Shown here one piece after another: positions 4,372 through 27,208 of a DNA stretch of 58,919 nt. The notes beneath the pieces are model-generated. The model had not been told where the DNA came from. It was given only the letters and a program-made list of their open reading frames with translations, and did not search any database. Within the stretch, counting starts at the first letter, position 1; every line of letters begins with the position of its first letter. The stretch is taken from IMG/VR virus record IMGVR_UViG_3300021964_007473, positions 1 through 58,919 of that record; one strand, given 5' to 3'. This DNA comes from a virus. Taxonomy: Duplodnaviria; Caudoviricetes. Both the position numbers and the translations under genes were made by a program.

Positions 4372-4546
4372 TCACTTTTCTCACTTTTGTCATTCACTTA
4401 GTCACGATTTTGACATGTTTGGAATACTCACTATTCCATAGGTACTACTCTCTCTAATAGTATAGAGAGTAAGACTACTGAAAAAGTGAGTAACCCGGAA
4501 TTGTCATTTTGGTGAAGTAGTGAATGAGAAAAGTGAGGTAGTGGAC
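4371..4546. repeat. Long imperfect in-register inverted repeat (dyad centre 4458/4459)
   Basis: Paired arms: 4380-4398/4519-4537 (18 of 19 bp), 4402-4405/4512-4515, 4411-4415/4502-4506, 4425-4432/4485-4492 and 4446-4453/4464-4471. All pairs sum to 8917. Confidence 0.9.
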
Positions 4547-4547
4547 A

Positions 4548-4562
4548 CAAGCCTTAAGATGA
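4548..4562 (+). promoter_or_regulatory. Putative archaeal TATA-box promoter for the 4590 operon
   Basis: CCTTAAGA lies ~30 nt upstream of ATG 4590, which has no SD, consistent with a leaderless transcript. Confidence 0.45.
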
Positions 4563-4589
4563 CCACTCTTGTGACCAAGCCTGAGCAGC

Positions 4590-5153
4590 ATGTCTTCTAT
4601 GCCTCAGTCCAACGAAGCCGAGATTCGTCTGATGGGCCTGATTATCTCGCAGTCAGCCCTTGTCGGACTTGCCATTGGCCTGTTTGATGCAGGTATGTGG
4701 CTCAACAATGACGATTCGTGGGTGAACGGTTTCACCTACGCCATGGCCGCATTCTTCGTGCAGGGTGTTGCCTACTACGTGTTCAAGATGTTCTTTGAGC
4801 AGAACATGCAGGAACGTGTTGCGGCAACCAACATGGAGCGTGAGCGGCAGTACCGTTTCCGCAGCATGCAGAACACTTTCGACAACCGACGCGCTGAGAT
4901 GGAACTGCGAATGCAGGAAGCCCAACTTGAGCGCGAACTGCGGTGGATGGAAGCCAACCCCGGTCAAATGCCTCCAAGTTGGGGCGTTCAGGGAGGCGCA
5001 CCGTCGTTGGTGTCTCAGTATGACATGTCTCAAATGTCAGGCGCACCCAAGCATGCTGCTGAAGTCAACCAACCTGTCAACCTCGGCGTCAAGGAAGACG
5101 TGCCGCTGAAGAAGGACGGCACGCCTGACAAGCGGTACAAGAACGACGAGTGA
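4590..5153 (+). CDS. Membrane protein (2 TM) with coiled coil and C-terminal KKDGTPDKRY motif
   Basis: Two hydrophobic segments (LMGLIISQSALVGLAIGLF; GFTYAMAAFFVQGVAYYVF) followed by an E/R/Q-rich helix. Confidence 0.75.
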   Translation: MSSMPQSNEAEIRLMGLIISQSALVGLAIGLFDAGMWLNNDDSWVNGFTYAMAAFFVQGVAYYVFKMFFEQNMQERVAATNMERERQYRFRSMQNTFDNRRAEMELRMQEAQLERELRWMEANPGQMPPSWGVQGGAPSLVSQYDMSQMSGAPKHAAEVNQPVNLGVKEDVPLKKDGTPDKRYKNDE

Positions 5154-5416
5154 ACATGGGTCGAATCTTCAAGACGCCCGTGGATGATTCCACGGAAGCC
5201 ACCTTGAGGGCGATGCACACGCAAAACACCCTTGATACGTACTACGAAAAGGGGCTTGGTTGGGTTCGTACACTTGTGTTCAGCGGCATTGCCGTGTTGC
5301 TGACGAGTCTGTACGAATTGAGAACTGACCGCAGCGTGTGGGAAGGTACCGTCAAGTGGTTTTGGCTCAAGATGGGCGATTTGGCTGCTTGGCTAACGGG
5401 GTGGGTCAATGGTTGA
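5150..5416 (+). CDS. Small membrane protein
   Basis: Hydrophobic segment LVFSGIAVLLTSLY and a Trp-rich amphipathic C-terminus. Translationally coupled to its neighbours. Confidence 0.7.
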   Translation: MNMGRIFKTPVDDSTEATLRAMHTQNTLDTYYEKGLGWVRTLVFSGIAVLLTSLYELRTDRSVWEGTVKWFWLKMGDLAAWLTGWVNG

Positions 5417-6125
5417 GCCTGCGGGTACCGCCTTGGTCGGTGCAATGGTGTGGGGTAAGACCCTGTACAACTCTTGGAGGCCGCGCAAAGTCGGCATTTA
5501 CGGTGCAGGGCTGACCGGAAAGACCACCCTTGACCGCTACATGACCACTCCGGGTGAGATGGAAGAGATTCCTGAAGAAGAACGGACCGAACATAGCAAG
5601 ATTCTCGGTCGCTACCTGCTTCCAAAGCCTTCTCGCAAGCGCGTGAGTTGGGAAGGCGAGAAGCGTGTCGTGTTTTCTGCCGATATTGGCGGCCAAGAGC
5701 GGTTTTGGAACCTGTGGATTGATGATATGGTGTCTCGACAAGTCCGTGCAGTTGTCTATCTGTTCGATGACCGAGCAATCAAGGGTGGAAACGACGCAAT
5801 TCAGCAAATTGCAGGATTTCGCTTTCTTGTTGACGCAATTACGGGTCGAAATTACCGGTATCGGACCCTTAAGAGCCGATGGAAGGGTAAATCGTACGCT
5901 CCAAGCCTGATTATGCTTGTTGCAAACAAGGCTGACCGGTATTTTGACGATACTGCGGCCAAATTGTACGCTGAAGGGCGGATTGGGGAGCATCCCATCT
6001 TCGACCCCTTCCGAGATGACCTCATTCGCTTGCAAAAAGCGGGTATTCCAACCCGCAGGTCGTTTATGGCAACCCGAATTGGATGGAACGTGGAACCAAC
6101 GATGGTCAACCTGTTGACGGTGTGA
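5409..6125 (+). CDS. Ras-superfamily (Arf/Rab-like) small GTPase
   Basis: G1 GAGLTGKTT, G3 DIGGQERFWNLW, G4 VANKAD and G5-like MATRIGWNV. Hydrophobic N-terminal segment. Confidence 0.9.
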   Translation: MVEPAGTALVGAMVWGKTLYNSWRPRKVGIYGAGLTGKTTLDRYMTTPGEMEEIPEEERTEHSKILGRYLLPKPSRKRVSWEGEKRVVFSADIGGQERFWNLWIDDMVSRQVRAVVYLFDDRAIKGGNDAIQQIAGFRFLVDAITGRNYRYRTLKSRWKGKSYAPSLIMLVANKADRYFDDTAAKLYAEGRIGEHPIFDPFRDDLIRLQKAGIPTRRSFMATRIGWNVEPTMVNLLTV

Positions 6126-6130
6126 GAAAC

Positions 6131-6304
6131 ATGGATAAAACGAAAGTAGCGTCGGTCGGCTCGGCAAGTCAGTCCCTTCGGACTGTGATTCCGTTGTGGA
6201 TTGCCAAGTTGATGCGATTGAAGAAGGGTAGCATCGTTGAATGGAACGTCATTCGTGAGGAAGACACGTATTCGGCGCACATGCGGGTGGTGGAGGAAGA
6301 ATGA
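6131..6304 (+). CDS. AbrB/MazE/SpoVT-family DNA-binding protein
   Basis: TKVASVGSASQSLRTVIPLWIAKLMRLKKGSIVEW matches the archaeal AbrB pattern S-L-R-x-x-I-P-x-x-I-x(3)-[LM]-x-L-x-x-G-x-x-[VL]-x-W. Confidence 0.85.
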   Translation: MDKTKVASVGSASQSLRTVIPLWIAKLMRLKKGSIVEWNVIREEDTYSAHMRVVEEE

Positions 6305-7233
6305 TTCCGTTTCGTGGTCAAGCACCGCAGCAAAACCTCGGTGACCTCAACGTAGCAAGCGTGTACGCACTTTCGCAGCAAGGTAACTCGATGCTGACCC
6401 ACGAAGCGTTGATGGCACAGGCTACGGCTCAAGCAGCCATGCAGGAAGTTGCTGCCGGGGCCAACCTGCAAGTGCCCAAGGTCAACTTCTATCCAAGCCG
6501 TCACCCTGACCCCGTGAAGGCTCGCCGTAAGGACATTCGACAGGCATACCGTCTGCTGACACCGACCAAGCGACACCTGCTCAACCCTGTGCGTACGCTC
6601 TTGGGTCGCAAGTACCGCTACGACAAGCAAGCCCACGTCTGCGTCATTGACGGCTGCGATTGTGCCGCGCTTATCCAAGTGGACAACCTGTACGACAAAA
6701 TTACGGACGATGAAACCGGGGTAAGTCTGTGGGAGTACTATTGGAAAAATCCCGTCACCGGACAGGCTGAAGCCTTTGTTGCCAAAGACAAGGTGACGAG
6801 CGGTCGCAAGATGCGAGGTACCTACTGCCCTGAGCATCTTCACTTGTACCACCTGCTTTGCAAGTGGGAGGCTGAGGAAGACAAGGTGAGCGAGGCCAAC
6901 CCTCGTCGTCTGCGTGACCGTATGAAGAAGGGCGTTTCGATGGTGACCGTTCCTGTGGCTGCGGTCAAGGCCAAGGACCCCACGCCGTCCTTCTTGCAGA
7001 AGTACGAGCCGTTCTTCGCTGAGTTGGAAAAGGATAGCAAGAAGACAAAGGGCATTTCCATCATGTACTACGAAAACCCGGCTACGGGGCTGAACGATGT
7101 GACGATGATTGCCTTTGACCTGCGGATTTTCCAACAGGAGTTGGCAATGGCAAATCAACCCACCGCCGCCTTCCAATCCATGCTCAGCGGTGAAAACCCT
7201 CATGAGCAACAGACGCTTCCGGTGGTTGAGTGA
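6301..7233 (+). CDS. Hypothetical protein with Cys/His metal-binding motifs
   Basis: CVIDGCDC...YCPEH. Coupled to the AbrB gene and uses core codon style. Confidence 0.7.
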   Translation: MIPFRGQAPQQNLGDLNVASVYALSQQGNSMLTHEALMAQATAQAAMQEVAAGANLQVPKVNFYPSRHPDPVKARRKDIRQAYRLLTPTKRHLLNPVRTLLGRKYRYDKQAHVCVIDGCDCAALIQVDNLYDKITDDETGVSLWEYYWKNPVTGQAEAFVAKDKVTSGRKMRGTYCPEHLHLYHLLCKWEAEEDKVSEANPRRLRDRMKKGVSMVTVPVAAVKAKDPTPSFLQKYEPFFAELEKDSKKTKGISIMYYENPATGLNDVTMIAFDLRIFQQELAMANQPTAAFQSMLSGENPHEQQTLPVVE

Positions 7234-7234
7234 C

Positions 7235-7861
7235 ATGCTTGGTTTGAACAGTCAGCAGCCACAATCACAGGGCGGTTCGTTGAGTCTCGGGGTGACCGGT
7301 TGGGGTCAACCGGCTCCTGCTCAACAGAATCCTTGGCCTCAACAAGCATGGGGTCAACAACCTCAGCAGATGGGGGCCATGGGAGCCTTTACTGCCGGTG
7401 CCGGTGTACCTCAGCAGCCGGTGGCCCCGCCAAGCGAACTTGAAATGCAGATTATGCTGCTTCGCGGTATCGTTCCGGTGGACCGATTCATCGCAAGCCC
7501 ACAGATGGGGGTCTTGGTTGAGATGTTCAACAACATTGTTTCCTTCTCGGTGTTGGAGATTCTCAAGAACGCGGTGTTTGTGGCTGACGAAGATGGCAAC
7601 CTCAAAATGGAAGTCACTTCCTTGCCGCAGCATTTGCAGACCATGAGTGCTGAAAACGTCAAGGCTGACTTCACCGCCTTGCAGTCTGCTGCGCAGCAGA
7701 ACATTCAGAACGCTGAAGGGCAGCAAATGCAACTCAACAACATGGCGAGTCAGTCTATGATGAACTCAGCCTTGGCTGCTGCAATGGACCAAGGTGTGAT
7801 GGAGAAGGCGGGTGGCTTCATTGGCAACACCGCTCGCTCATTCATTACCGGGGGACGATGA
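7235..7861 (+). CDS. Gln/Pro/Met-rich hypothetical protein
   Basis: ATG 7235 immediately follows the previous stop. Low-complexity N-terminus and helical C-terminus. Confidence 0.7.
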   Translation: MLGLNSQQPQSQGGSLSLGVTGWGQPAPAQQNPWPQQAWGQQPQQMGAMGAFTAGAGVPQQPVAPPSELEMQIMLLRGIVPVDRFIASPQMGVLVEMFNNIVSFSVLEILKNAVFVADEDGNLKMEVTSLPQHLQTMSAENVKADFTALQSAAQQNIQNAEGQQMQLNNMASQSMMNSALAAAMDQGVMEKAGGFIGNTARSFITGGR

Positions 7862-7862
7862 T

Positions 7863-8105
7863 ATGCAAGACAAATCGTACATGCCACGTGGTATTGCCAC
7901 GACCACCCTTGACGTGTTGAACCCTGAGCGCAGCGTCATCGTTGACATGATTATGGTGCAGTTTCTCTCGGCCATCCTTGTCCTTGTGGCTATTATTTTG
8001 TTCAAAGGCAACGAACTGCCTGCATCCTCCATGTCCTACTACGTGGTCGGATTGTTTGGTAGCGTCCTTGCGTTGACCGGTGTGTACGCCCGCATCGTTC
8101 GATGA
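7863..8105 (+). CDS. Small 2-TM membrane protein (holin-like size)
   Basis: IMVQFLSAILVLVAIILF and YYVVGLFGSVLALTGVYA, with a basic C-terminus. Confidence 0.7.
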   Translation: MQDKSYMPRGIATTTLDVLNPERSVIVDMIMVQFLSAILVLVAIILFKGNELPASSMSYYVVGLFGSVLALTGVYARIVR

Positions 8106-8142
8106 CGGAATGCTTTTGAAAGAAATGCCACCAAACAAAAAT

Positions 8143-8817
8143 ATGAGCAGCGACCGCGTTATGAAGCGGTCGTGTTCTTTTTGCATGGACGAAGAGCGCG
8201 ATGGGCTTGAGCAGGGCCTTCTCGACGGTCACATTTCGCCAAAGCAGTTGGACAAAGACAAGGGGTGGCGAACCAACACCACCGAGCGGCACTACCGCAA
8301 CCACATGGGCGAGTTTCACCTTGCATCCAATTCAGGATGTCCTGTCTGTACGTCGCATCAGCGTGCTGCGTACGAAGAGTTGTACTTCAACACAGGCAAC
8401 AGCGACCTCATCGCTCAAGAGTTGGAAGTCAGCGAGAACGTGGTCTATCAGCACATGAAGAATCACTTTCAGCCGCTTGTGCAAAAGACGGCTGCTATCG
8501 AAGTCGCCCTGCGTGCAGGCACCGAGATTGATTTGTTGCGAAGCAACGCTGAGCGGCTCAATCACAAGTTGAGCGAACTGCTTGACGAAGGCAGCGTCCA
8601 CGAAGACGGCTTTGTGCGGGATGCGGTGTCGCTGCACAAGGAAGTTCGTGAAACAGTCAAAGACCTGCTTCGCTTCCAAGACCAATGGGGTGCGCAAAGC
8701 GACACGCAGCAGGTCAATCAGACCTTCAACATCTTGCAAGTCGAATTGAGCAAGGAGAGTCCTGAAGTATGGGCGCGGCTTAGGGCGCAATTGATGGAGA
8801 ACATGGGGGTGGAGTGA
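8143..8817 (+). CDS. Tandem CxxC...HxxxH zinc/HTH protein, candidate terminase small subunit
   Basis: Two repeats (CSFC...HYRNH; CPVC...HMKNH) plus a C-terminal coiled coil. Lies upstream of TerL. The TerS assignment is inference. Confidence 0.55.
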   Translation: MSSDRVMKRSCSFCMDEERDGLEQGLLDGHISPKQLDKDKGWRTNTTERHYRNHMGEFHLASNSGCPVCTSHQRAAYEELYFNTGNSDLIAQELEVSENVVYQHMKNHFQPLVQKTAAIEVALRAGTEIDLLRSNAERLNHKLSELLDEGSVHEDGFVRDAVSLHKEVRETVKDLLRFQDQWGAQSDTQQVNQTFNILQVELSKESPEVWARLRAQLMENMGVE

Positions 8818-12251: not shown

Positions 12252-12983
12252 ATGAAGCCCGTACTCGTTCGTAAATCTGAAACTGCGTTGCAGCAGGTAC
12301 CAAGTGGCGGTTTGCAGTTGGTGGTTGGTGGCAAAGGCCCATCAATTCGTGAACTTGCGGGCATGGCTTTTGGCCGAAAAACAGGTCAGAAAGGGCAAGG
12401 ATGGCAAAGACTTGGTGCTATTGCTGATTTGGCAGGTCGCGGTCTTTCTGCTGCGGCTACCACGCAACAAATTGCAGACCAAATGCAAGGGGGCAACCTC
12501 GCTGCTCCTATGGGTGCGTACGCACAATACCTTGCAAACCAACCGTGGCAATTCATTGAAAGGCAAAAAGAAACACAACCTCAAACTCAATCTTCGCCCA
12601 CTCAGCAGCAATCCCCACAAATGCAGTCTGTTGCACCGGGTTCAACTGCTCCTGATGGCTCCGCACTACCACCGGAGCAAATGATGCTACCGGGTATGGA
12701 GCAACCTCAGCAACCTCAGCAACCTGTGCAGCAACCTGTGCAGCAACCTGTGCAGCAACCTGTGCAACCTGTTCCTCCTGAAGAAGCAGCAGCGGCCATG
12801 ACAGGACAACCTGTTCAACAGTCTGCTGCTGCTCAGCCTGCTGCTCAACCTGCTGCTCAGCCTGTTAACCCTGCACTTGCAGCAGAACAACTCCGAGCGC
12901 AAGGACAAACCGGTTTATTCACCTATTCTGCTGAGCCGTTTGAACATGCGATGGACTACTTGCTCAAGAGGTTGAGCCGATGA
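12252..12983 (+). CDS. Gln/Pro-rich protein with C-terminal tag (EPFEHAMDYLLKR)
   Basis: GAGGTGA SD, N-terminal VLVRKS, and QPVQ and AAQP repeats. Confidence 0.75.
   Translation: MKPVLVRKSETALQQVPSGGLQLVVGGKGPSIRELAGMAFGRKTGQKGQGWQRLGAIADLAGRGLSAAATTQQIADQMQGGNLAAPMGAYAQYLANQPWQFIERQKETQPQTQSSPTQQQSPQMQSVAPGSTAPDGSALPPEQMMLPGMEQPQQPQQPVQQPVQQPVQQPVQPVPPEEAAAAMTGQPVQQSAAAQPAAQPAAQPVNPALAAEQLRAQGQTGLFTYSAEPFEHAMDYLLKRLSR
12701..12773 (+). repeat. Coding tandem repeats (9-bp QQP and 12-bp QQPV units)
   Basis: GCAACCTCA and GCAACCTGTGCA units read directly. An AAQP x3 repeat follows at ~12828-12863. Confidence 0.9.
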
Positions 12984-14467
12984 ATGAAGACATGAATCAG
13001 TTCATCCTTGAGATGGACCGTGAAATGTCGGCCAAGTCCTTCAGGTACTTCTTTACCGAGATTCTCGGTTTTGAGTACTCGTACCACCATGAATGTTGGG
13101 ACAAAGGGTTGGACTCCAACCGCTACTACTGTGTGAAAGCAAGTCGTGACCACGGCAAATCCGTGTTCTTCATGTCCTATGCCCTGTGGATTGCGGCGTT
13201 TCAGCCCAACACCCACGTCATGATTTTCAGCCACTCGCTTGAGCAGACGCTTGAACACATGCGGTTCATTCGCAACAACATCGAATCCACCCCGTGTCTG
13301 CGACACCTTATTCCTGAAGGCCGACCTTGGCGAAAGACCTACTTTGACTTTGCAAACGGAAGCCGTATGATGGCAAAGTCCGTGGGTGGTGGTACCCGTG
13401 GTTTCCACCCGAACGTGGTTGTGTGCGACGACATTCTGTGGGGCACGACCGGTACTGAATTGCAGCGTGCTGCGGATTGGTTCTATGGTGTTCTGCTTCC
13501 TGTGCTGCACCACACCGGTCGCATGATGATTGTCGGTACACCTTTTTCGTACAACGACCTGTACGCAGAACTTGAGCAACGTGAGGCATTCACCGTTGAA
13601 ACCTACCCTGCCATCAACACCGAAGGAAAAGCCCTGTGGCCTGAGCGGTGGGATTTGGAATCGCTTGACCAACGGCGACTTTCTATGCCTGCTATTCAGT
13701 TCTCCCGTGAATACCTGTGCGAGCCGATTCACGACGTTGCGAGTATGTTCCCCAACGACATTCTTGAAAAAGCAAGGGACAGGGACCTTGTGTTGCTTGA
13801 CCGCGCTGAGATGGAGTATGACGAAGAAGGTGAGTCGGCAGGCATCTTTGGGCAGCATTTCATCGGATGGGACACGGCGATTGCCTCGGACAAGAACGCT
13901 GACTTTACCGCTATGCTTGTGCTACGTACGTTACCTGATGATGGTACCAAACAAATTGTCGGTGTGCATCACGAACGTGGAATGAGCGGTGCAGCGCAGA
14001 AGCGGCAAATCCTGATGATGAACAACCGCTTCCAACCTGACTTGATTGAACTTGAGGGCAACAACTTCCAACGCATGTTTGCTGCTGAACTGCAAGACAT
14101 GCGCAACGACATTCCCATCAAGACGTTCATGACCACCCGTCAGCGCAAGGAATCCATGTTCATGTCCCTGCTCATGGCGTTTGAGCAAGGTCAGATTCGC
14201 ACACCCTACGGGGATGAGCGAAGCCGTGAGTTCACGCACAAGTTGGAGCAAGAACTCAACCGCTTCGGCATGCAGAAAAACGGGAAGTTGGAAAGCGTGG
14301 GTACGCACGACGACTTGGCAATGGCCCTCGCTTTGGCGAATTGGGGCACCAAGGAGTTCCGTGGCTCGCTCGTCATGCTTGACGACTACATGCCCGGATT
14401 TGGCGATTGGCTTAGTGGTGGTCGTCAGGAAGAGAAAGGAGGGTTTGGTGGATGGCTGACCCCTTGA
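12980..14467 (+). CDS. terL: Terminase large subunit
   Basis: Walker A ASRDHGKS, Walker B VVVCDD, coupling motif VGTP, and nuclease IGWDTA and HDDLAMALALA. Confidence 0.95.
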   Translation: MNEDMNQFILEMDREMSAKSFRYFFTEILGFEYSYHHECWDKGLDSNRYYCVKASRDHGKSVFFMSYALWIAAFQPNTHVMIFSHSLEQTLEHMRFIRNNIESTPCLRHLIPEGRPWRKTYFDFANGSRMMAKSVGGGTRGFHPNVVVCDDILWGTTGTELQRAADWFYGVLLPVLHHTGRMMIVGTPFSYNDLYAELEQREAFTVETYPAINTEGKALWPERWDLESLDQRRLSMPAIQFSREYLCEPIHDVASMFPNDILEKARDRDLVLLDRAEMEYDEEGESAGIFGQHFIGWDTAIASDKNADFTAMLVLRTLPDDGTKQIVGVHHERGMSGAAQKRQILMMNNRFQPDLIELEGNNFQRMFAAELQDMRNDIPIKTFMTTRQRKESMFMSLLMAFEQGQIRTPYGDERSREFTHKLEQELNRFGMQKNGKLESVGTHDDLAMALALANWGTKEFRGSLVMLDDYMPGFGDWLSGGRQEEKGGFGGWLTP

Positions 14468-14520: not shown

Positions 14521-15819
14521 ATGTGGGGGAGTGCATTGGTGGGTGACGTGTACGACGTGCCCCTTGTGAGTGACGACCCTTTCACCAAGATGGTGATGAA
14601 CTCCATTGCTCAGCATCCCTTCTTTTCACCGCATGACGTACCCATGCAAACCACGTCAACGGTTTTTCTCAAAGAAGACCTGCGAAAGCGAGAGTTCCCG
14701 AAGAACGGCGACGGATGGCTTGAGACGTATTGGGGAAAAGACGCTGACACCATCATTCGTGAGTGCCGCAAGATGCGACGGCACGACAAAGACAACCGTG
14801 ACGAATACGACGAAACGATTGGGCTTGTGCGCCAACTGAAAGCCATGGAGGTTGAAGCAACCATCAACAACCTGTCGTGGGCTGAAGGTATGGAGAGCGT
14901 CATTAAACAAATGGGGCTGACTGACCGTAGCCTCAAGGCGTTGCGTAAGTTTGGTGAGAGCCGTAGTGTGTCGTTGCAGAAGGCATGCCATCAATTCCTC
15001 AAGGCCAACACCGTGTTGCAAATGCTCAACGACAAAGTGGATTGGGATGAAGACGACCAACAATCGTGGGTTGACGCCACGCATTTGCAGAAAGATGCTC
15101 GCAAAATGTGGCGAAACGTACTGCACCAAGTGGACACGTTGAACAAGGCAGAACAAGATGCCCTGTACTTTGCAGCAGAAGAATTGCAAGCCCACGGTCA
15201 CCTGAGCAGCCGAGAGTTGCTCCGCCGTGGCTCAGACACCTTGGACCGCAACATGACGGCGCAGCGCATGGGTGCATTGCTCAAGATGTACGGTGAAGAG
15301 TTGAACATCTTCAAGAGTACATCACGCGGTGACTACGTTCTTTTGGGTCGTGATGGATTCATCATCAAGGACATTTGGGCGTACATGGCGGGTTCACTCG
15401 ATTCTGACGGTAGCATCTTCATCAGCGAGCGCGGTGACCCCCGTGTGACCTTCGTTGCAAGCGGTGACTCAGGGAAACAACTGTGCGAAGACTTGCACAA
15501 GGCCACCGGATGCGGTCGTCTTGTCACGGACCAAAAGGTGTCCCGCAACACCAAGAAGAGCGTACACCGACTCATCTTTTCACGCAAGGACGACATTCGC
15601 CGTGTCCTCAAGGCTACCCTTCCCCACATGATGCTCAAGACCACGCAAGCGAGAGCCATGCTCTCGTACGTGGATGAGAATGATTCCATGCGAAAGCAGG
15701 AGTTGTACCGACTTGTCACCTTCTCAAATTGGAAGGACCATACGGTGAAAGCCAACGGGCTTCTTGATAAGTGGGGAATTGATGCCGATACCATCGGTGC
15801 ATACGCGGAGGGTCTATGA
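14521..15819 (+). CDS. Protein with C-terminal LAGLIDADG homing-endonuclease-like domain
   Basis: YMAGSLDSDGSIFI at ~15382-15423, preceded by a ~280-aa helical/winged-helix-like region. TTTTTAAC TATA-like box at ~14490. Confidence 0.75.
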   Translation: MWGSALVGDVYDVPLVSDDPFTKMVMNSIAQHPFFSPHDVPMQTTSTVFLKEDLRKREFPKNGDGWLETYWGKDADTIIRECRKMRRHDKDNRDEYDETIGLVRQLKAMEVEATINNLSWAEGMESVIKQMGLTDRSLKALRKFGESRSVSLQKACHQFLKANTVLQMLNDKVDWDEDDQQSWVDATHLQKDARKMWRNVLHQVDTLNKAEQDALYFAAEELQAHGHLSSRELLRRGSDTLDRNMTAQRMGALLKMYGEELNIFKSTSRGDYVLLGRDGFIIKDIWAYMAGSLDSDGSIFISERGDPRVTFVASGDSGKQLCEDLHKATGCGRLVTDQKVSRNTKKSVHRLIFSRKDDIRRVLKATLPHMMLKTTQARAMLSYVDENDSMRKQELYRLVTFSNWKDHTVKANGLLDKWGIDADTIGAYAEGL

Positions 15820-17567
15820 TGGCTGAAGAAGGACGCATTTCTCGGTTCCTGTCAGGCCTTCGTAGCCCGTTCAAGTCGCGTGAGTCACCCACGCCGACCA
15901 TGCCGTTGTGGTCAAGCGGTATTCAGGAACCCGTGATGGCTCAGGGCATCACCATTCCGGCCCTCTATGCGGTCAGCAACGAATCGCTGATTCTGCGCAC
16001 CGTTCTTTCCAAGTTGCGTCAAGAAATGTTCCGTCGCGGCTACTATTGGGAAAAGAAGTTCACAGTCAAGTGTACGGTGTGCGATGAAGAGTACCAACAG
16101 GAAATGGAATCCTGCAAGCAATGCGGTGGTGAAGTGCGCAAGCCTGACCCTGATGAGTTGACCTACCCTAAGTGGTTGCTCGGTCAGGAGAACTCGATGG
16201 AACAATCGTTTGTCCATCTGCTCCATGAAGTTGAGAATGACCTCAACATTGTGGACGACGCCTTCCTCATCTTGGTCAAGGAATACTTCATTGACCCTGA
16301 AAGTAAGGAGATTGCGTTTTACCGTGTCAAGGAGATGATTCGTGGTGACCCCATCTTCATGCGCATTGTGGCCGACAAGCGCGGTGTGCGTGGTGGCCGA
16401 TTCAAGGTCTGCATCATCCATCGTGACGAAGTAAAGACACACGCTGACGACAAGGTGTGTGAGAACTGCGGTCGTGACCTTGAAGACGTTCACTACGTCA
16501 ACATGGCCGGTAGCGGAAAGACGCAGTATTTCGTTGAAGGTGAAGTGATACACGTCAGCAAGTACACTCCGTCGAAGTTGTACGGACGTAGCCCTGTCAA
16601 CACCATGTGGCGTCAAGCCATGACACTCACGGCCATGGACAATTACATGTACACGGCTTACCAAAAGCGACGGATGCCCAAGGGTATCATCTCGGTGACT
16701 ACGGACAACCTTGAGTCCATGAAGTCGTTTTGGAAGTCCGTTGACGAAAAGATGGAGCGTGACCCCCACTACATTCCCCGTGTTGGTATTGAATCGCAAA
16801 CCGGCAAGGGTGGCGTGAATTGGGTCAAGTTCATGGACACCTTGGAGGAAATGCAGTACATTCCGGTTCGTGACGAGATTCGCAACAGGATTGCTGCATT
16901 CTATGGTGTTTCAAGCATCTTCATGGTGGACACCGGCAAGTCCGGTGGTCTGAACAACGAGGGCATGCAGATTCTTGTCACCAACCGTGCGGTTGAGTTT
17001 GGTCAGAAGGTGTACACCGATGTTTTGTTCCCCCGTCTGCTCAGGCAGATGAACGTTAGCGATTGGAAACTCACCTTGTACCCCAACGAGGAAGAGGACG
17101 AAATCACTCGCCTGCGCCGCGACGAGCAGGAACTCAACGTGGCTCAGCGCATGGCTCAGTTGGGCTTCCAACCGGAACTGCTTGAAGACCCGGCCAACCG
17201 TGACATTCGCTTCGTGTACCGCAAGCCACAACCGCAACCCGGTATGCCCGGTATGCCTCCCGGTGGCGCACCTCCGGGTATGCCCGGTATGCCTCCCGGT
17301 GGTATGCCTCCCGGTGGTATGCCGCCGCAGATGGCAGGCGGACCGCCGATGGTTGGGGGGATGCCTCCGGGTATGCCGATGCCGCCGCCTCAGCCGGGTG
17401 GTCAGGGCGTTGGTCTGCGCAATCGAGGTCCTGCTGCTCCTGAGCGAAGGACCACGGTTGGTAGCGGCGCACCGGTCAGCAGCGTTCAGCAACGCGGTCC
17501 GCAGCCGAACCTACAACAAAATGTCAGCAACGCATTGATGAACGCCCGAAGGCCTCGCGGTGCCTAA
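15816..17567 (+). CDS. Portal protein with Zn-ribbon insertions and Pro/Gly/Met tail
   Basis: Lies after terL. Portal-like segments EVIHVSKY..SKLYGRSP and RNRIAAFYGVS. Inserts CTVC/CKQC and CIIH/CENC. Confidence 0.9.
   Translation: MMAEEGRISRFLSGLRSPFKSRESPTPTMPLWSSGIQEPVMAQGITIPALYAVSNESLILRTVLSKLRQEMFRRGYYWEKKFTVKCTVCDEEYQQEMESCKQCGGEVRKPDPDELTYPKWLLGQENSMEQSFVHLLHEVENDLNIVDDAFLILVKEYFIDPESKEIAFYRVKEMIRGDPIFMRIVADKRGVRGGRFKVCIIHRDEVKTHADDKVCENCGRDLEDVHYVNMAGSGKTQYFVEGEVIHVSKYTPSKLYGRSPVNTMWRQAMTLTAMDNYMYTAYQKRRMPKGIISVTTDNLESMKSFWKSVDEKMERDPHYIPRVGIESQTGKGGVNWVKFMDTLEEMQYIPVRDEIRNRIAAFYGVSSIFMVDTGKSGGLNNEGMQILVTNRAVEFGQKVYTDVLFPRLLRQMNVSDWKLTLYPNEEEDEITRLRRDEQELNVAQRMAQLGFQPELLEDPANRDIRFVYRKPQPQPGMPGMPPGGAPPGMPGMPPGGMPPGGMPPQMAGGPPMVGGMPPGMPMPPPQPGGQGVGLRNRGPAAPERRTTVGSGAPVSSVQQRGPQPNLQQNVSNALMNARRPRGA
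17239..17400 (+). repeat. Coding PGMPPGG repeats in portal C-terminus
   Basis: CCCGGTATG and CCTCCCGGTGGT units read directly. Confidence 0.85.
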
Positions 17568-18311: not shown

Positions 18312-18886
18312 AGCCACGACCCGTTGAATCCGAAGTACTGACGAAGGCCCGTGACATGGCTGCTCGCCTTGATGCCTTGGAGAAGGCCAAGTGTGATTGC
18401 GGCAAGGAACCCTGCGAGTGCAAGTCTTGCCCCAAGTGTGGTGGCAAGATGGCAAAGATGGGATGCATGAAGGCCGGTTGCGGCTCTATGCAGAAGGCCG
18501 ACGAACAGGTGAAGGAGAAGATTACCGAGGTGAACCCTCACTTTCTGACCGAGACGGGCGGACAGACGCGCACCGCGTACTACTCCACCCGTGACCGTCC
18601 CATTGAGACGGAAGACCACAAGCCCAAGCGTGCTAAGGACGGCAGCAAAGTCAGCCTTGAATCCCTTGGAAGCCGGATGAACCCGCATGAGGGAACCGGT
18701 GTTGACCGTGAGGATGCACAGGGCGGCTCCCCTGTCAAGAAGTCCCCCGCGAGTGAGATGCGCGAGGCTGCTGAACAGGGTGCGCCCATGGTCTGCGGTC
18801 TGTGCGGCGGTACTGAAGACACCGGTTGTCTCGCCCATGGTGGTATTGACCTCATGGCCTGTCCGAAGTTCAAGCCGCTCCGTTGA
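18308..18886 (+). CDS. Cys-rich head-associated protein
   Basis: ARLDALEKA, then CDCGKEPCECKSCPKC..., with a C-terminal CGLC...C...C. Confidence 0.7.
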   Translation: MKPRPVESEVLTKARDMAARLDALEKAKCDCGKEPCECKSCPKCGGKMAKMGCMKAGCGSMQKADEQVKEKITEVNPHFLTETGGQTRTAYYSTRDRPIETEDHKPKRAKDGSKVSLESLGSRMNPHEGTGVDREDAQGGSPVKKSPASEMREAAEQGAPMVCGLCGGTEDTGCLAHGGIDLMACPKFKPLR

Positions 18887-18897
18887 GGGGTGGTCTT

Positions 18898-21800
18898 GTG
18901 TCCTACGAGCAGTTCGACCATGCGACGGTCAACCTGCTTAAGTCGCTGAGCGACGGGCTTGATTTGGAAGAAGCCGCTGCTGAGTACATCATTGCATGGG
19001 ACTCGTTGCAGAAAGCCCCATCCGGTGATGCATCTTACGTGCTGCTTAAGCGCGAGGCTGAAAACATCATTGAAGGGAAGAAGCGGGCAAGTGCTGATGC
19101 ATACCTGCTTGGGTTTGACCCGGTGGGTGAGCCAAGCCTGCACCCGTGGTACGAAGGGCTACAATCGGTAAGCGACCACAAACACGGACACGCCTTTTGG
19201 CCGACGTACAACGCACCTGTTGGTGCGCCCTACCAAAACGAAAACTTCCCCTTCCATCCTATGCATCATCCGCTGCTGCGTCAGCATGCGGTAAGCGGTA
19301 AGCCTGCATTCGTCGAGGGTCTGCGAAAGTTCGTTCTTGGAAAAGGTGGACACGCACAAGAAGAGAAAGAGATGGAGCAGGCTTGGCTTGCTGAGTTGGC
19401 GGGAGAAAAACACCCTGTCACCCACGGCTACAAGCCTGACCCAAAGGACCCCACCCGTACGATTCCAATTGTCGGGAACCTGAACGAAGGCATGTCGGAT
19501 GATGCGAAACATCAGGTTGACCTGTATGAACGGGACTTCAGGCGTTGGATGAAAGCCAATCCTGAGCGTGAGGACTATTGGCGCACGCATCAGGCTGAGA
19601 TGGTCAAACGTGGGTACCAAACAATTGACGATGCTTTGCGCAACGAGCATTTCGATTCACGCTCAAACGAATGGATGAGCGAAGACTACGCCGAAGACCC
19701 ATATGCAGGTGTGTCTGTACCTGAAGGGCTTGGGCACATGGGCTACATGCTTGGTCTTGAGTGGTTCAGCCCTCAAGAGCGACAGGTGGTGATGGACGCC
19801 ATCAACGAAGGTACGGTTGGTACTGAACATAGCAAGAACATCACGCTGCCTGACGGGACCAAGGTTCCCACGGCTCGATTCATTCACAACATGTTGTACC
19901 GCATGACTCCTGAAATGGATTGGGCAACCCGTAAGCCCAAGCACTTTGGTCGCAACGCTGCTATGCGCCTTGAGAACAACGACACCGACTACGCTCAAGG
20001 TGAAGAAGGTCGCTTCCTTCAGTCTGCTTTGGGCAAACTCAGCCACTACTCTCGTCTAACAGACTTGGGTGGAGACACCCTCTTCGGTGCAATTCGTGAC
20101 AAGATTCACGACCTTCATGGTATTGACCCTGAAGACGATGAAACGGCTGAGGTTTTGGAAAACCTACCTCGGTTTGAAATCGGTAAGAATCAACATCTGC
20201 TCAACGGCAAGATGGATTGGAACGATGTGGTCGAAGGTTCATGGGGGCACTTTAAGGGCAAGAAGCGCGAACCTGAGAAAGTACGCATGACCATGGACGA
20301 CCTGTGGTTTTTGTCAGGCTACGACCCAAACACAAAGCAGGTGATGCCTGACCACCCCATTTACGGTTCTCAAAACGTGGATGAACCGTTCATCAACCGT
20401 GATACGTTGGAGGCCATGGAAAAGGAAGCAGGTAAGCACAAGGGGCTTGAGCAGCAAGCAAAGTCCATTCGTAATCATCTTGGTTTCCTCAAGAACTCAT
20501 TTGGTCCCTCACCTGACGACAAGAACATACCCTCGTATTGGAAGTTTCATCCAAGTGGTTATTCCTACGGTCCGGGTCGCTTTTGGTCCCAATCCTTTGA
20601 CAATGTTGGTGGGCAGGGTATGTCCCTACCTACCTACCTCGACGTGGTGCATTCACCGCACGCTGACGAACAAGGCAATTCGTTCATGCTGATGGGTGAA
20701 AGTCAATCTCAGCAGAACATGCCAAACATGGCAAACCATCGCCTCATCAATCACTTCCTTCCTGAAGTAACACAGGCCCGTGGTGAGTACGAGGTGATGG
20801 GTGACGAAGGGAAGGTGACCGGTCGCTTTGTCCGCCATACCCCTGCGTTGTTGATGCAGAACGTCCTCTCACCTACCAACGTCACCCGTGTGTTGGGTGG
20901 ACGAGAAGGCTCGACGTTCAAGAACAATCACACCGATTTCAAACACTCCTTCTCACCGTTGTACGAACGTACCCTTCGTGACTTCAATGACCGTGGTGCC
21001 AACATTTCATCGGTTTTGCCCGCAGGTCTGAAGACGATGGATTCTCGGTTGAGTCACAATCAATTCCTTCGCCTTAACCCTGAATCAATGTACGGTGCTA
21101 CTCCCGGTGAGTTCACAATGGCAAAGGATGCACACCGACAAGCATTCGGTCTTGGACACATTTTCCATCCGAGCCAACCTTCAACCAAGAGTGTGCTTAG
21201 CCATCGTGACTTAGTAAATGGGGCACCGTTCACGGCAGGTGAATCCCCTGAAGACTTTGAGAGCATCATGGGATGGGGTGGCATCAAGTCGCCAACCCTT
21301 CAACGTCTCAAGCAGCGTATCATTGAGTTTCCATCGGATGCTGAAGCGGTGCAGACCGTTTCCATGGTGGCACGCATGCTCAACACGGACAAACCGCGTG
21401 ACGTGTGGAACTACTTGTCTGAGGGCGATTACAAAGAACTTGAGAACTACTACAACGAAGCACGTGGTGGCGGCTTCTCTTCTGAGCAAATCAACAAGTT
21501 GGTTGAAGATGCCAAGGCGGTTATCCCCGCTTGGTCCGAGGTCGCTCGCCAAAGCCTGTCTTCACAGAAAGGTGCGGTCAAGGATTCACCTGTTCGTGGT
21601 GTTGAACACATGCTCGGTATGGGCGGTGCAATGCCTGCTCTTCAAGAAGAGCAGCGTTTGCAGGATGAAGTCGAATACTTGCAGAACCGGCTGATTGAGC
21701 CAACTGAAGAAGACGACGTTGACCTGCTGCGTCAGCAGTATGAGGATGCGAAGCAGCAACTCATTCAGTTGCAGATTGGCGCACAGTCGAAAGCACTTGG

Positions 21801-24679: not shown

Positions 24680-26053
24680 ATGCTTACGATTCAGCGACCT
24701 GAAGTCGGACTCTCGCTCCTGAAGGGCGGGTCCGACCTTGTGGTTGCCGGATATGCGTCCGTCGAGTTGGTGGACAAGCAGGGCGACCTCATTACGCGGG
24801 GTGCCCTCAAGGATGCCTTTGACGGCTTCATGAAGAGCGACAAGTACCGCAACGTGCAACTCGCTCACTCCAACATTCAAGTCGGTGAAGTCATTGACTC
24901 CTACGTGGACTCCAACGGTCGCATGTGGAAGTCCGAGTGTGACGACACCGGCATGTTCGTCGTTGTGCAACTCCGCAACGACATTGAGAAGGCCCGTGAG
25001 GTTGCTGCGGAAATCCGCAAGGGCAACCTGCGCGGCTTCTCCATTGGGGGTCAGGCGTTCAAGCGTGTTCGCAAGTCTGACTCTATCCACGGAGATTACC
25101 AAGAAATCTCCAAAATGGAACTCCACGAGATTACGATTTGCGAGAAGGGGATTAACCCTGAAGCGCAGTTCAGCATCTTGAAGGAGGACACCACTATGAG
25201 TGCAGACAACGATTTGACCGACATTATGAGCCGACTTGAAGCCCGCCTCGATGCGATGGAAAAGGGCGAACTTCCTCTTGCTCTCCGTGAGAGCATGAAG
25301 GAAGAAAAGAAGGAGTCCTCGGACTCCGAAGAAAAAGAGTCCCAAAAAGACAAGAAGGAGGACGAAGACATGCCTGAAGATATGGAAAAGGGAGAATATA
25401 GCGACGTTATCACCGCTGAATACCTCTCGTGGATGGAAGACACGCTGAAGAGCGCGGGTGTTGACACCCACGCGGCCCGACTGCACTTCGACCAAATGTC
25501 GAAGGCTCAGATGGGCGGTTTCGACAACCCCGACTCCGTGGACGGTGCCGAGTACTTCGCCGGTCAGGTTCGCGGTCGCGGTCAGGAGAAGGGTAGCCCC
25601 TCGACGGGTGCCATCTCCGCCCTCACCTCCGGTGCAGGCAAGGAGCCTGCCGGTGCCCTCGGACCTGTCCAACTCGGCAAGTCCTACGTCACCGACGCCT
25701 CCGACGCTGACATCGAGGCTGCGTACGAAGTGTACAAGGCCGCTGCGCTTGAGCAGGCCTTCCGTGGCAACCTTGAGCAGCAGTTCTCTTCCCGCTTCTC
25801 TCAGGAGATGCAGGTCGCCAAGGCTGAAGCCGAGCGCAACCAATTCGATGCTCGCGCTCCGCTCGCTGAGGTACTCAAGTCCATTGAATCCCTGAGTGAC
25901 CGCCTCGACAACCTGTCCACCGGCAGCGTTGAGGTTGGCACCACCATTGCAAAGTCCTCCACGAGCGTTGAGGTCCCCACCACGGGCGACCTTGCGAACA
26001 TGTCGTGGGACGAAGTTCACACCCTCGCGGGCCGAGCGGTCCGGGGTGAGTGA
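24680..26053 (+). CDS. HK97-type prohead protease fused to C-terminal scaffold
   Basis: VAGYASVELVDKQGD, catalytic His (QLAH), GFSIGG (Ser) and EITICEKGINPEA. Acidic/coiled-coil C-terminus, directly upstream of the MCP. Confidence 0.93.
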   Translation: MLTIQRPEVGLSLLKGGSDLVVAGYASVELVDKQGDLITRGALKDAFDGFMKSDKYRNVQLAHSNIQVGEVIDSYVDSNGRMWKSECDDTGMFVVVQLRNDIEKAREVAAEIRKGNLRGFSIGGQAFKRVRKSDSIHGDYQEISKMELHEITICEKGINPEAQFSILKEDTTMSADNDLTDIMSRLEARLDAMEKGELPLALRESMKEEKKESSDSEEKESQKDKKEDEDMPEDMEKGEYSDVITAEYLSWMEDTLKSAGVDTHAARLHFDQMSKAQMGGFDNPDSVDGAEYFAGQVRGRGQEKGSPSTGAISALTSGAGKEPAGALGPVQLGKSYVTDASDADIEAAYEVYKAAALEQAFRGNLEQQFSSRFSQEMQVAKAEAERNQFDARAPLAEVLKSIESLSDRLDNLSTGSVEVGTTIAKSSTSVEVPTTGDLANMSWDEVHTLAGRAVRGE

Positions 26054-26080
26054 GGAAATCAAACAAAAGGAGTGAATGAA

Positions 26081-27208
26081 ATGGCACGAGACTACATTAG
26101 GACAATTACCGACATGGAGCGGTACTTCTATGGCGCGGGTAACGCCATGGGGTACTCCTACTCCGGCAGCGAACTCTTGAAGGCTGACGCACCAATGCTC
26201 TCCACCACGGCGGGCATCTATCAGGCCATCTATGGCCGCAAGGTGTGGAGCCAACTCAACCAAGAGTTCAACGCCTTCTCCATCCTCCCCAAGCGACCTT
26301 GGGAGCGCAGCGGGTGGCGCGTCATCACGGAGCGTCCCTCCTTCGCCGTCGGAGGTGGCCTCGCGGAGAACTCGACCCTCCCCGACACCACCAAGCCGAC
26401 CTTCCAACACATCGCTGCGAAGCCCAAGACCATCGCGCACACCTTCGACATGTCGGAGACGGCGATGTTCCTTGCTGACAAGGACGACGGCCTCGGTGAC
26501 ATCCGAGCCGTGCTGAAGGAAGAGATGGGTAAGCACCACGCAGAACACATCAACAAGATGCTCACCGAGGACGTGACGACCGTTGCCGGGAACGACTTTG
26601 AGTCGCTCGACCGTGTGACCGTCGGCAACAACTCGATGGTTGCGGCTACCCACTACGACGCGGGTGACGAAGACATGTACTCGATTGACCGCAGCGCGAA
26701 CTCGTGGTCCTTCGCTGAGGACTCCGCGTCCGCGACCGCGACCGACCGTGTTCTGTCCCTCGACCACCTCGATGAAATCTTCCGCCTGACGTGGGAGCGC
26801 GGTGGCAACCCCAAGGTCATCCTGACGGGCTACGACACCCTCATGCGCTTGCAGCAACTCTTGCAGTCGCAGCAGCGGTTCCTTGAGGAAAAGCGTGTCA
26901 CCCCCACCTACAACGGTGTGAAGGGTGTGCCCGGTATCGAAGCCGGTTTCATCGTGGCGACCTACAACGGTATTCCCATCATCCCCTCCAAGGACGTTGC
27001 GAAGGACACCCTGTCCCGCATGTACTTCCTCGACACGGACTACCTGTACTTCTCCACCGCCATCCCGACTCAGTACTTTGAGTCCGGCATCGAGACGGGC
27101 GACCCCTTCGCCATCAACAGGCTCGGTCAGGAAGGCATGTACCGCACCATGGGTGAGTTGTGGACCACTTTCTTCGGTGGTCACGCTTCCATCCGTGACC
27201 TGAAGTGA
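26081..27208 (+). CDS. Major capsid protein (HK97 fold)
   Basis: Follows the protease, has the strongest C-ending codon bias in the window and a GGAGTGA SD. HK97-like segments: GGLAENSTLP, PKTIAHTFDMSE, YNGIPIIPS, MYFLDTD. Confidence 0.92.
   Translation: MARDYIRTITDMERYFYGAGNAMGYSYSGSELLKADAPMLSTTAGIYQAIYGRKVWSQLNQEFNAFSILPKRPWERSGWRVITERPSFAVGGGLAENSTLPDTTKPTFQHIAAKPKTIAHTFDMSETAMFLADKDDGLGDIRAVLKEEMGKHHAEHINKMLTEDVTTVAGNDFESLDRVTVGNNSMVAATHYDAGDEDMYSIDRSANSWSFAEDSASATATDRVLSLDHLDEIFRLTWERGGNPKVILTGYDTLMRLQQLLQSQQRFLEEKRVTPTYNGVKGVPGIEAGFIVATYNGIPIIPSKDVAKDTLSRMYFLDTDYLYFSTAIPTQYFESGIETGDPFAINRLGQEGMYRTMGELWTTFFGGHASIRDLK

Follow-up and report, generated by a model that had tools for sequence, protein, structure and literature searches.

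Here, we describe a compact cassette of genes built around a small GTPase in a virus of the Caudoviricetes (Duplodnaviria), IMG/VR virus record IMGVR_UViG_3300021964_007473. The whole stretch of DNA that was analysed, which we refer to as the window, is 58.9 kb long (58,919 nucleotides) and has an estimated completeness of 55%. The block at positions 4590-8105 consists of seven open reading frames (ORFs), g1 to g7, all on the plus strand and meeting at overlaps of 4-8 nt or gaps of 1-5 nt, with the GTPase in third place. The cassette is a core feature of abundant ocean magrovirus-like elements thought to infect marine group II archaea. This is based on the conservation of the GTPase, on a gene order shared by four clades, and on the long genomes in which the cassette is found.

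The GTPase gene, g3 (5409-6125, plus strand), encodes a protein of 238 aa with a G1 motif GAGLTGKT, a G3 motif DIGGQ..FWNLW, a G4 motif NKAD, a hydrophobic N-terminal extension of ~25 aa, and the sequence RTxH in the switch I region. Counted over 189 unique sequences from the four clades of the family, GxxxxGK[ST] is kept in 187 (G32, G37, and K38 being invariant), DxGG in 182 (D92 and G95 invariant), and NKxD in all 189 (N173 and K174 invariant, D176 nearly so), which bears out an earlier annotation of this DNA, made from the sequence alone (hereafter the original prediction), in which G1, G3, and G4 were called intact. In the window protein the G3 stretch reads DIGGQERFWNLW, and W103 is nearly invariant. 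The AlphaFold2 (AF2) model of the protein has a predicted local distance difference test score (pLDDT) of 65, and a Foldseek search with it returned 7 PDB matches at E<=0.001, every one a small GTPase (Ras, Rho, Rab). We conclude that g3 is a real small GTPase with intact nucleotide-binding motifs and, as modelled, a Ras-like fold.

Not every part of the active site is held equally. At the position after DxGG, where Arf has its catalytic glutamine, the three large clades have Q in only 48 of 70, 42 of 63, and 30 of 54 of their unique sequences, the others having E, T, D, or H. Nucleotide binding is therefore under strong constraint and the canonical catalytic glutamine is not. In the switch I region RTxH (R59, T60, H62) is conserved in three clades, at the right place for the G2 threonine, while the P0148-like clade differs and the model has low confidence there; the arginine or histidine of this motif could take part in hydrolysis in cis. 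The hydrophobic N-terminus, also noticed in the original prediction, proved to be a family trait, as each of the four clades has the ~25-aa extension; its maximal hydrophobic moment (muH) over 11 residues has a median of 0.52-0.65.

What kind of small GTPase is it? At E<=0.001 the family comprises 474 clusters, the best 120 of which are 73-99% identical. The window GTPase has no match in Pfam, even at E 10, nor in NCBIfam or PHROGs; no member of its clade reaches the threshold of Pfam Arf (PF00025), and TIGR00231 (small_GTP) matches 18 of 39 family members. Distant full-length members stay below threshold against Arf, Roc, Ras, Gtr1/RagA, and MMR_HSR1, the sole pass for Arf among 13 distant relatives being P0204 (36.5 bits against a threshold of 22.3); P0204, P0130, and P0162 have no relatives in IMG/VR to give gene context. 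Against the PDB, phmmer with the window GTPase returned only Arl8, at E ~1, across DIGGQ.RF...W. A profile that includes the distant members had as its best PDB sequence 8oun_A (E 6.9e-8, profile positions 13-122), followed by Arl8A/B (1.6e-5 to 1e-4) and by Rab33B and KRas (~5e-4); the RecA concatemer rows in the same list match over the P-loop alone and were rejected. The entry 8OUN is an Arf-related GTPase from Asgard archaea, GerdArfR1, for which the accessible part of the source reports an N-terminal amphipathic helix required for membrane binding (bioRxiv 10.1101/2024.02.28.582541). In the structural comparison with VIA, where rows within 1 Z count as tied, Arl8B came top (Z 11.6, root-mean-square deviation 3.1, 148 residues aligned), 196 of 1000 chains had Z>=8, and further values were 10.8 for LokiRagO, 10.6 for Arf3, 10.4 for Gtr1, 10.2 for G-alpha, 9.3 for MglA, and 9.0 for GerdArfR1. 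The GTPase is thus a new, isolated family whose nearest known kind, assigned by best-hit ranking, is Arf/Arl and more broadly the Arf-Rag-G-alpha group, and which is not a member of Pfam Arf. Of the earlier label "Arf-like DIGGQ", the Arf likeness holds as the nearest known kind (8oun_A, Arl8B), while membership in Pfam Arf and conservation of the glutamine do not.

This isolation bears on the idea that the gene was recently captured from a host, as an auxiliary gene with no dedicated partners and with unrelated neighbours. Some source annotations do name family members "GTPase SAR1 family protein", and the Arf GTPases of a putative Asgard mobile element are described, in the accessible part of the source, as clustering with host Arfs (PMC11529989). 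However, when a profile built from 24 members was run against 1,835,955,588 representatives, no more than 85 proteins came up at E<=0.001, many of them fragments and mostly of the same family, and the window protein, as noted, has no Pfam match at all. A scan of genome contigs, covering close patterns, found only 3 GTPase loci (L082, L083, and L084), which lie on contigs of 8-16 kb in unrelated metagenome-assembled genomes (MAGs) of Maricaulis, Parvibaculum, and Promethearchaeati and are most likely misbinned viral contigs. With a synteny to g1, g2, g5, and g6 that is fixed in four clades, recent capture is in our judgement extremely improbable. A tblastn search of the GTPase against 50,697 phage records gave no match.

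The cassette was followed through the best 80 of the 163 IMG/VR contigs with a close relative of the GTPase (the close loci), and through three further clades reached via distant members: P0123-like (81 contigs), P0128-like (4 contigs), and P0148-like (140 contigs). All 80 close loci have g1, g2, g3, g5, g6, g7, g8, and g9 in collinear order, with g4 found in 75 and g10 in 76. Hidden Markov models (HMMs) from the window's clade recovered g5, g6, g7, and g8 in 80/80 P0123-like loci, g1 in 75-76/80, g2 in 63/80 (77/80 after iteration), and g4 in 1/80; in the P0128-like loci the same models recovered g1 and g5 in 4/4. In the P0148-like loci, after HMM iteration, g5 was found in 80/80 and g6 in 74/80, and where there was enough flanking sequence analogues stood at fixed offsets: a transmembrane (TM) protein with a charged helix (76/76), a small TM protein (77/77), and a Q-rich protein (73/73). 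An analogue of g6 is also present in the P0128-like locus L168. In the three other clades (78/78, 4/4, and 80/80 loci) g5 starts at a median distance of 0-17 nt from the stop codon of the GTPase. No g4 was found in the P0128-like and P0148-like clades (0 loci), and g7, likewise not found in these two, is common to the window's clade and the P0123-like clade only. From these searches, the conserved unit is g1-g2-GTPase-g5-g6, present in this order in all four clades, with the AbrB/MazE-fold gene g4 as an insertion specific to the window's clade. The synteny check called for in the original prediction has in this way given a smaller but more widespread unit, kept in four clades.

We compared 43 window ORFs with four long relatives by tblastn. 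In a genome of the same clade (G001, 107 kb) 35 of the 43 ORFs have a match, with the large terminase subunit TerL at 78%, the major capsid protein (MCP) at 76%, the GTPase at 74%, the portal at 68%, g5 at 67%, and g1 at 66%. A P0123-like genome (G002, 109 kb) matches 31 of 43 (MCP 76%, TerL 75%, GTPase 64%, g5 58%), a P0148-like genome (G003, 98 kb) matches 12 of 43 (portal 49%, MCP 38%, GTPase 37%, TerL 35%), and a P0128-like genome (G004, 110 kb, 79% complete) matches 2 of 43, these being the GTPase (34%) and g5 (32%). The GTPase is therefore about as conserved as TerL and MCP, at the level of a core gene. The first three relatives (98-109 kb) are 100% complete by CheckV; PolB is present in 4 of the 4, a Cpn60/TCP1 chaperonin in 3, and terminase and portal in 3. 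Magroviruses are described, in the accessible part of the source, as elements of ~90-110 kb with a family B DNA polymerase, a chaperonin, and a head-tail module (PMC5434244), a picture which the window's relatives fit. In the phage collection there is no close relative, the best TerL identity being 27%.

Where the cassette sits raises the first serious alternative, namely that it assists virion assembly or packaging, with the GTPase and its partners providing a checkpoint or a scaffold while heads or tails are built or DNA is packaged at the membrane, and does not act on the membrane itself. The window's head-tail module comprises TerL (12980-14467), the portal (15816-17567), a prohead protease (24680-26053), an SU10-type MCP (26072-27208), and a tail tube protein (32189-34045), and the cassette lies upstream of g8-TerL in the window, G001, and G002. 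In G003 it lies instead at ~65 kb, just after MCP and between MCP and the tail genes, 22 kb from the homologue of g8 (34%) that stands at 43280 near TerL (49059); the order of the genes thus survives a change of the cassette's place in the genome. In all three tailed clades, then, the cassette is found within the morphogenetic block, and its GTPase matches TerL and MCP in conservation and probably shares a transcription unit with TerL, all of which speaks for an assembly role. On the other side, two to three of the cassette partners are membrane proteins, and we know of no small Ras-like GTPase among head-tail assembly factors.

The fourth genome, G004 (loci L266-L271, with the cassette in L168:5832-9274), also counts against assembly. 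It carries the GTPase, g5, and g1, and gave no match to Terminase_6C or Phage_portal, although the record is 79% complete and divergent capsid genes could escape such a search, so that the point is not decisive. A cassette in an element without detectable terminase or portal nonetheless argues against a pure head-tail assembly role, and overall we regard that role as rather unlikely. G004 encodes an Rpb1-like RNA polymerase subunit, PolB, a thermosome subunit, a serine resolvase, an archaeo-eukaryotic-primase-like protein, and a HerA-like ATPase, and its cassette adjoins the thermosome gene. It fits the unresolved "group D" of Philosof 2017, which in the accessible part of that paper has DNA polymerase, thermosome, resolvase, and RNA polymerase A and no identified morphogenetic block (Philosof et al., PMC5434244).

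The conservation of the cassette is likewise informative for another possibility, that it serves host takeover or superinfection exclusion by altering the envelope or a host GTPase pathway so as to block further infection or redirect physiology. Membrane proteins and a switch protein combined in one module would suit such a task. Exclusion genes, however, are usually accessory and variable, whereas this cassette is core, kept over four clades, and diverging in step with the hallmark genes, and neither its position nor its coupling to late genes suggests an early function. Of the three functions offered in the original prediction, membrane remodelling, egress, and superinfection exclusion, the last is the least likely because the cassette is conserved at core-gene level, and we take the takeover or exclusion reading as a whole to be very unlikely. 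That prediction had also named two outcomes that would speak against it, a block whose genes are not co-conserved and a GTPase that is a recent solitary capture from a host. What we find is the opposite of both: collinearity in 80 of 80 close loci with a five-gene core in three further clades, and a GTPase of an isolated family, conserved at the level of TerL and MCP and with weak co-folding support for a partnership with g5.

The partner genes offer little by way of known families. The first, g1 (4590-5153, plus strand, 187 aa), has an N-terminal hydrophobic hairpin (~12-35 and ~45-68), in which hydropathy finds one strong and one weaker segment, then an extended region of charged helix and a tail rich in P and Q whose end is conserved; it has no match in Pfam, in PHROGs, or, by profile, in PDB sequences. 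It is followed by g2 (5150-5416, plus strand, 88 aa), which overlaps both the g1 stop and the g3 start and has a cytosolic stretch at its N-terminus that is conserved, a single TM segment (~35-57), and a C-terminus rich in Trp. At the far end of the block, g7 (7863-8105, plus strand, 80 aa) has two TM segments and a holin-like size. The TM content claimed for g1, g2, and g7 is therefore upheld by hydropathy, with the reservation that the second g1 segment is the weaker one. The resemblance of g2 and g7 to holins is one of size and TM count, as neither matches a holin family in Pfam (E<=0.1) or PHROGs (E<=0.01).

Between the membrane proteins and downstream of the GTPase lie g4, g5, and g6. The g4 protein (6131-6304, plus strand, 57 aa, its start fixed by orthologues) is a probable swapped-hairpin domain protein of the SpoVT/AbrB-MazE type, its gene lying between those of the GTPase and g5. 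Of 29 orthologues, 27 match PF04014 (MazE/SpoVT-AbrB), with a best E of 4.1e-6, while the window's own g4 is below PF04014 detection at E<=0.1 and aligns to the orthologues at 28-53% identity with the LRTxxP..W motif kept. A g4 profile found nothing significant among PDB sequences. An AbrB regulator had been listed as part of the block, and the orthologues support the domain assignment, but the gene falls outside the conserved module, with its 1 occurrence in 80 loci of the nearest other clade. The orphan protein g5 (6301-7233, plus strand, 310 aa) was correctly picked out as a Cys/His protein, with C114..C119/C121 and C176-P-E-H179; across the four clades C114, G118, and C176 are invariant and H179 is nearly so. 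Its first motif is CxxCG in two clades and CxxDGCxC in the window's, and its second is C-P-x-H, a pattern that suggests a zinc site. The AF2 model of g5 has a pLDDT of 81 (core >88) and resembles no known fold, with a best Foldseek E of 0.32 in the PDB and a best Z of 5.2 in the VIA wide search, where the usual noise of the tool is 7-8; there was also no usable ESM Atlas match and no significant profile match in PDB sequences, and none of the 1149 clusters of the g5 family is named. Finally, g6 (7235-7861, plus strand, 208 aa) has a Q/P-rich N-terminus, a conserved central domain, and a Gly-rich hydrophobic C-terminal tail, and has no match in PDB sequences or the ESM Atlas.

The block does not end where g7 ends. 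The next gene, g8 (8080-8817, plus strand, starting at GTG 8080 or ATG 8110; 245 aa), abuts g7 and has two Cys pairs, an HTH-like (helix-turn-helix) stretch, and only sub-threshold matches in Pfam. It is co-transcribed by position and lies outside the movable cassette; since it keeps its place next to TerL where the cassette has moved, it may serve in packaging, in the manner of a small terminase, or as a late regulator. Between the start of g1 (4590) and the end of TerL (14467) the genes are never more than 5 nt apart, which makes the block, by position, the head of a long late transcription unit and not a closed seven-gene operon, so that the cassette probably shares a transcription unit with TerL. 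In three metatranscriptome libraries 14 short contigs (120-479 nt) cover g1 to g7, and from these we draw no conclusion about transcription or operon structure, as contigs from RNA libraries are no proof of transcription and reveal no transcript ends.

Upstream, g1 is preceded by a 218-nt intergenic region that ends in CTTAAGA-TGACC-N8-TGACC, with the ATG 26 nt further on. This promoter-like element (4553-4589, plus strand) thus combines a TATA-like CTTAAGA, a TGACC-N8-TGACC repeat, and a short leader before the g1 ATG. When 66 non-identical upstream regions of the family are aligned, the consensus reads CGAAAC-CTTTATG-tTGACC-N7-GTGgCC-..-GAGGACA-ATG; a [CT]TTWWDD box is found at -45..-36 from the g1 ATG in 51 of the 66, and GAGG, resembling a Shine-Dalgarno (SD) sequence, stands just before the ATG. 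The spacing of box to ATG fits an archaeal TATA box and a short leader carrying GAGG. No second copy of the promoter motif was found within the window. The claim of a seven-gene block behind its own TATA-like box therefore survives as to the seven ORFs and the box, which is conserved, and fails as to its end at 8105, the unit being tight as far as 14467.

Next to this element, at 4372-4545 (no strand), lies an inverted-repeat region with imperfect arms of 77 nt (4380-4456 and 4461-4537) around an AT-rich palindrome, which is flanked by inverted arrays of the 9-mer AAAAGTGAG/CTCACTTTT; 5 of the 8 window-wide sites of the 9-mer fall in the region. The RNA fold of the palindrome is -76 kcal/mol, with a z of -8.35, and the same layout of inverted arrays, with lineage-specific repeat sequences, was seen by eye in 7 relatives. 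The region could be a complex operator or an origin-like element, similar to an origin recognition box (ORB) or DNA-unwinding element (DUE). A further alternative is that the cassette organises an intracellular compartment or replication site, by assembling or tethering a membrane-associated viral factory or with a role at a replication origin, echoing the haloarchaeal oapABC (arvABC) genes. OapA/ArvA was first named for its origin-side position, the origin-like element here lies directly upstream of g1 and recurs in relatives, and in G004 the cassette stands beside the thermosome gene. Chaperonin genes of magroviruses have been placed in the replicative cluster, according to the accessible part of the source (Philosof et al., PMC5434244). 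Yet the repeats could just as well serve the neighbouring promoter as operators, the search beside them yielded no initiator gene, and in P0148-like genomes the cassette follows MCP, so that we hold a replication-site role to be distinctly unlikely.

In light of the cassette being a core module with a GTPase at its centre, what might its role be? We propose, at a probability of about 40%, that it is a membrane-bound GTP switch for release or membrane remodelling, late in infection. The membrane function is inferred from gene architecture, two or three partners of the GTPase carrying TM segments by hydropathy, and g5 is a candidate partner from co-folding. The co-fold of GTPase and g5 with GTP and Mg scored 0.46 (runs 0.53, 0.38, and 0.46), whereas none of 3 controls exceeded 0.00, and the verdict was "weak support". 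Of 80 solved complexes 58 attain the mark, as do 2 of 110 mismatched pairs; at <=0.60 it is attained by 7 of the 80 and by both mismatches. The runs share at least 40% of their contacts, and the pLDDT of the partner is at least 64. As the GTPase and g5 abut in 162 of 162 loci of three clades, we count the co-fold as a modest plus. Co-folding with neighbours had been suggested along with the search for a known regulator fold, and it has yielded a weakly supported partner whose own fold resembles none that is known.

In the mechanism we envisage, the cassette would be expressed together with the late packaging and structural genes, and the GTPase would cycle between GDP and GTP at the cytoplasmic membrane, held there by its hydrophobic N-terminal extension, by the membrane proteins g1/g2, or by both. 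As receptor or exchange factor, g1/g2 would play the part that Sec12 has for Sar1. In its GTP state the GTPase would engage g5, as an effector or as a regulator resembling a GTPase-activating protein (GAP) and possibly zinc-binding, and also g6. Together they would deform or breach the host membrane and so let progeny leave a host presumed to be without a peptidoglycan wall; in capsid-less relatives vesicle-borne DNA would leave instead. The AbrB-fold g4 would be a lineage-specific regulator. The absence of a visible endolysin, as the original prediction had it, is borne out by the lack of endolysin-type Pfam families among 44 window proteins or pieces, in a record that is only 55% complete.

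Several observations weigh against a release or remodelling switch. The co-fold pass belongs to a weak class which, by the tool's own rating, is wrong more often than it is right unless there is a good prior, and the variable residue after DxGG means that canonical GAP-stimulated hydrolysis is not assured. The N-terminal helix of the window GTPase is hydrophobic and only weakly amphipathic (18-residue muH 0.15-0.32), with low AF2 confidence there, and the His of the g5 C-x-x-H is lost in L168. Location inside the morphogenetic block is equally compatible with an assembly role. No holin, lysis-protein, or other family matches g1, g2, g5, g6, or g7 in Pfam, PHROGs, PDB sequences, or the Atlas. 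At E<=0.01 the window also lacks ArvB (OapB, PF09846), for which Haloferax volcanii and Methanosarcina acetivorans controls matched, and the Zn-ribbon of ArvC (OapC, PF09845). Taken together, the observation made in the original prediction is confirmed and its interpretation is partly supported.

A bolder form of the switch proposal, which we put forward as speculative and rather improbable in its entirety, is that magrovirus-like elements encode their own five-protein, Arf/Sar1-like machine for membrane budding or breaching, consisting of a TM receptor pair, the GTPase, a new-fold Zn-type regulator, and a Q-rich partner, with an evolutionary history separate from ArvABC and from the Arf lineage of Asgard archaea and eukaryotes. 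By means of it tailed members would exit wall-less marine group II archaea, and capsid-less "group D"-like elements, sharing only the cassette with them, would spread in vesicles.

Some other features of the window may be recorded here. At the start of the contig (4-792) there is an HMGL-like (pyruvate carboxyltransferase-type) gene whose homologue in G001 is 45% identical, and which may be an auxiliary metabolic gene. A 1919-aa ORF (18883-24642) lies between the portal region and the prohead protease, its sole Pfam signal being a sub-threshold ATP-dependent DNA ligase domain (E 2.7e-4, residues 1516-1597). Downstream of the tail tube genes a single ORF of 5529 aa (37385-53974) has a Pfam match in neither half, and ~43% of it aligns to G001 at 50% identity. 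A SAP-domain protein (E 3.4e-13) is encoded in the tail region (34055-34570), and in the P0148-like clade a SAP-like motif was seen by eye in the ORF just upstream of the cassette (L176:5487-5981).

Three papers on magroviruses (PMC5434244, PMC11706807, and PMC10160649) are silent on the GTPase in their main text, although their supplementary tables may list the gene. The literature on magroviruses and GTP gave only an unrelated mention, and we found no description of the family in the literature on Poseidoniales GTPases or on Caudoviricetes small GTPases. The closest printed precedent, going by the accessible part of the source, is the Arf GTPases in a putative Asgard mobile element (PMC11529989). 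The release of archaeal viruses is listed, in the accessible part of a review, as pyramids, budding, and undefined membrane disruption (PMC10791045). A core cassette around an Arf-like switch is a concrete and testable candidate for release or membrane remodelling by tailed archaeal viruses. It also adds a deep, virus-borne branch to the small GTPases acting on archaeal membranes and, as a shared non-structural module, links the tailed magroviruses to the enigmatic "group D" elements.

How does the cassette compare with systems already known? Holin-endolysin cassettes and virus-associated pyramids resemble it in having small membrane proteins encoded with late genes, and, in the accessible part of the review, known egress devices need no wall-degrading enzyme in wall-less hosts and use no GTPase (PMC10791045), unlike the viral cassette, which in turn has no holin or PVAP family match. 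The putative mobile region of Atabeyarchaeia resembles it in carrying Arf-type GTPases on an archaeal mobile element; those Arfs, however, as far as the accessible text describes them, cluster with Asgard and eukaryotic Arfs and vary between strains, whereas the viral family is isolated, core, and set in a fixed cassette (PMC11529989).

The ArvABC vesiculation system of Euryarchaeota is closer in layout, and among working systems it is the nearest precedent. The accessible part of the source reports that vesicles form in Haloferax volcanii under the action of the small GTPase ArvA together with ArvB and ArvC, a Zn-ribbon protein. The likeness is one of arrangement: there, too, an archaeal small GTPase bearing an N-terminal helix shares its operon with a small protein encoded directly downstream of it and with a Cys-rich (Zn) protein (PMC10927574). 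In contrast to that system, the viral g4 has an AbrB/MazE fold, is not SepF-like, and is clade-specific, and g5 has no known fold. Because the viral cassette lacks the ArvB and ArvC domains, it works like ArvABC at most and is not a member of it.

In its logic the cassette also recalls COPII and ArfGAP systems, where a GTPase with a membrane-inserting N-terminus is combined with a transmembrane activator and a zinc-containing GAP or effector. In Sar1 His replaces the Gln, as it does in the GTPase of the P0128-like clade. Neither g1, g2, nor g5 showed sequence or fold similarity to Sec12, Sec23, or ArfGAP, and the parallel with COPII is one of analogy only. There is finally the Arf family itself, as represented by Asgard ArfR1 (8OUN/8OUM) and Arl8, with which the viral GTPase shares a Ras-like fold, an N-terminal helical extension before beta-1, DxGG(Q)..F/Y...W, and NKxD. 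It is unlike Arf in that the Gln is replaced in about a third of the sequences, in a G1-G3 segment ~13 residues longer with a conserved RTxH, and in being encoded by viruses or mobile elements together with fixed orphan partners.

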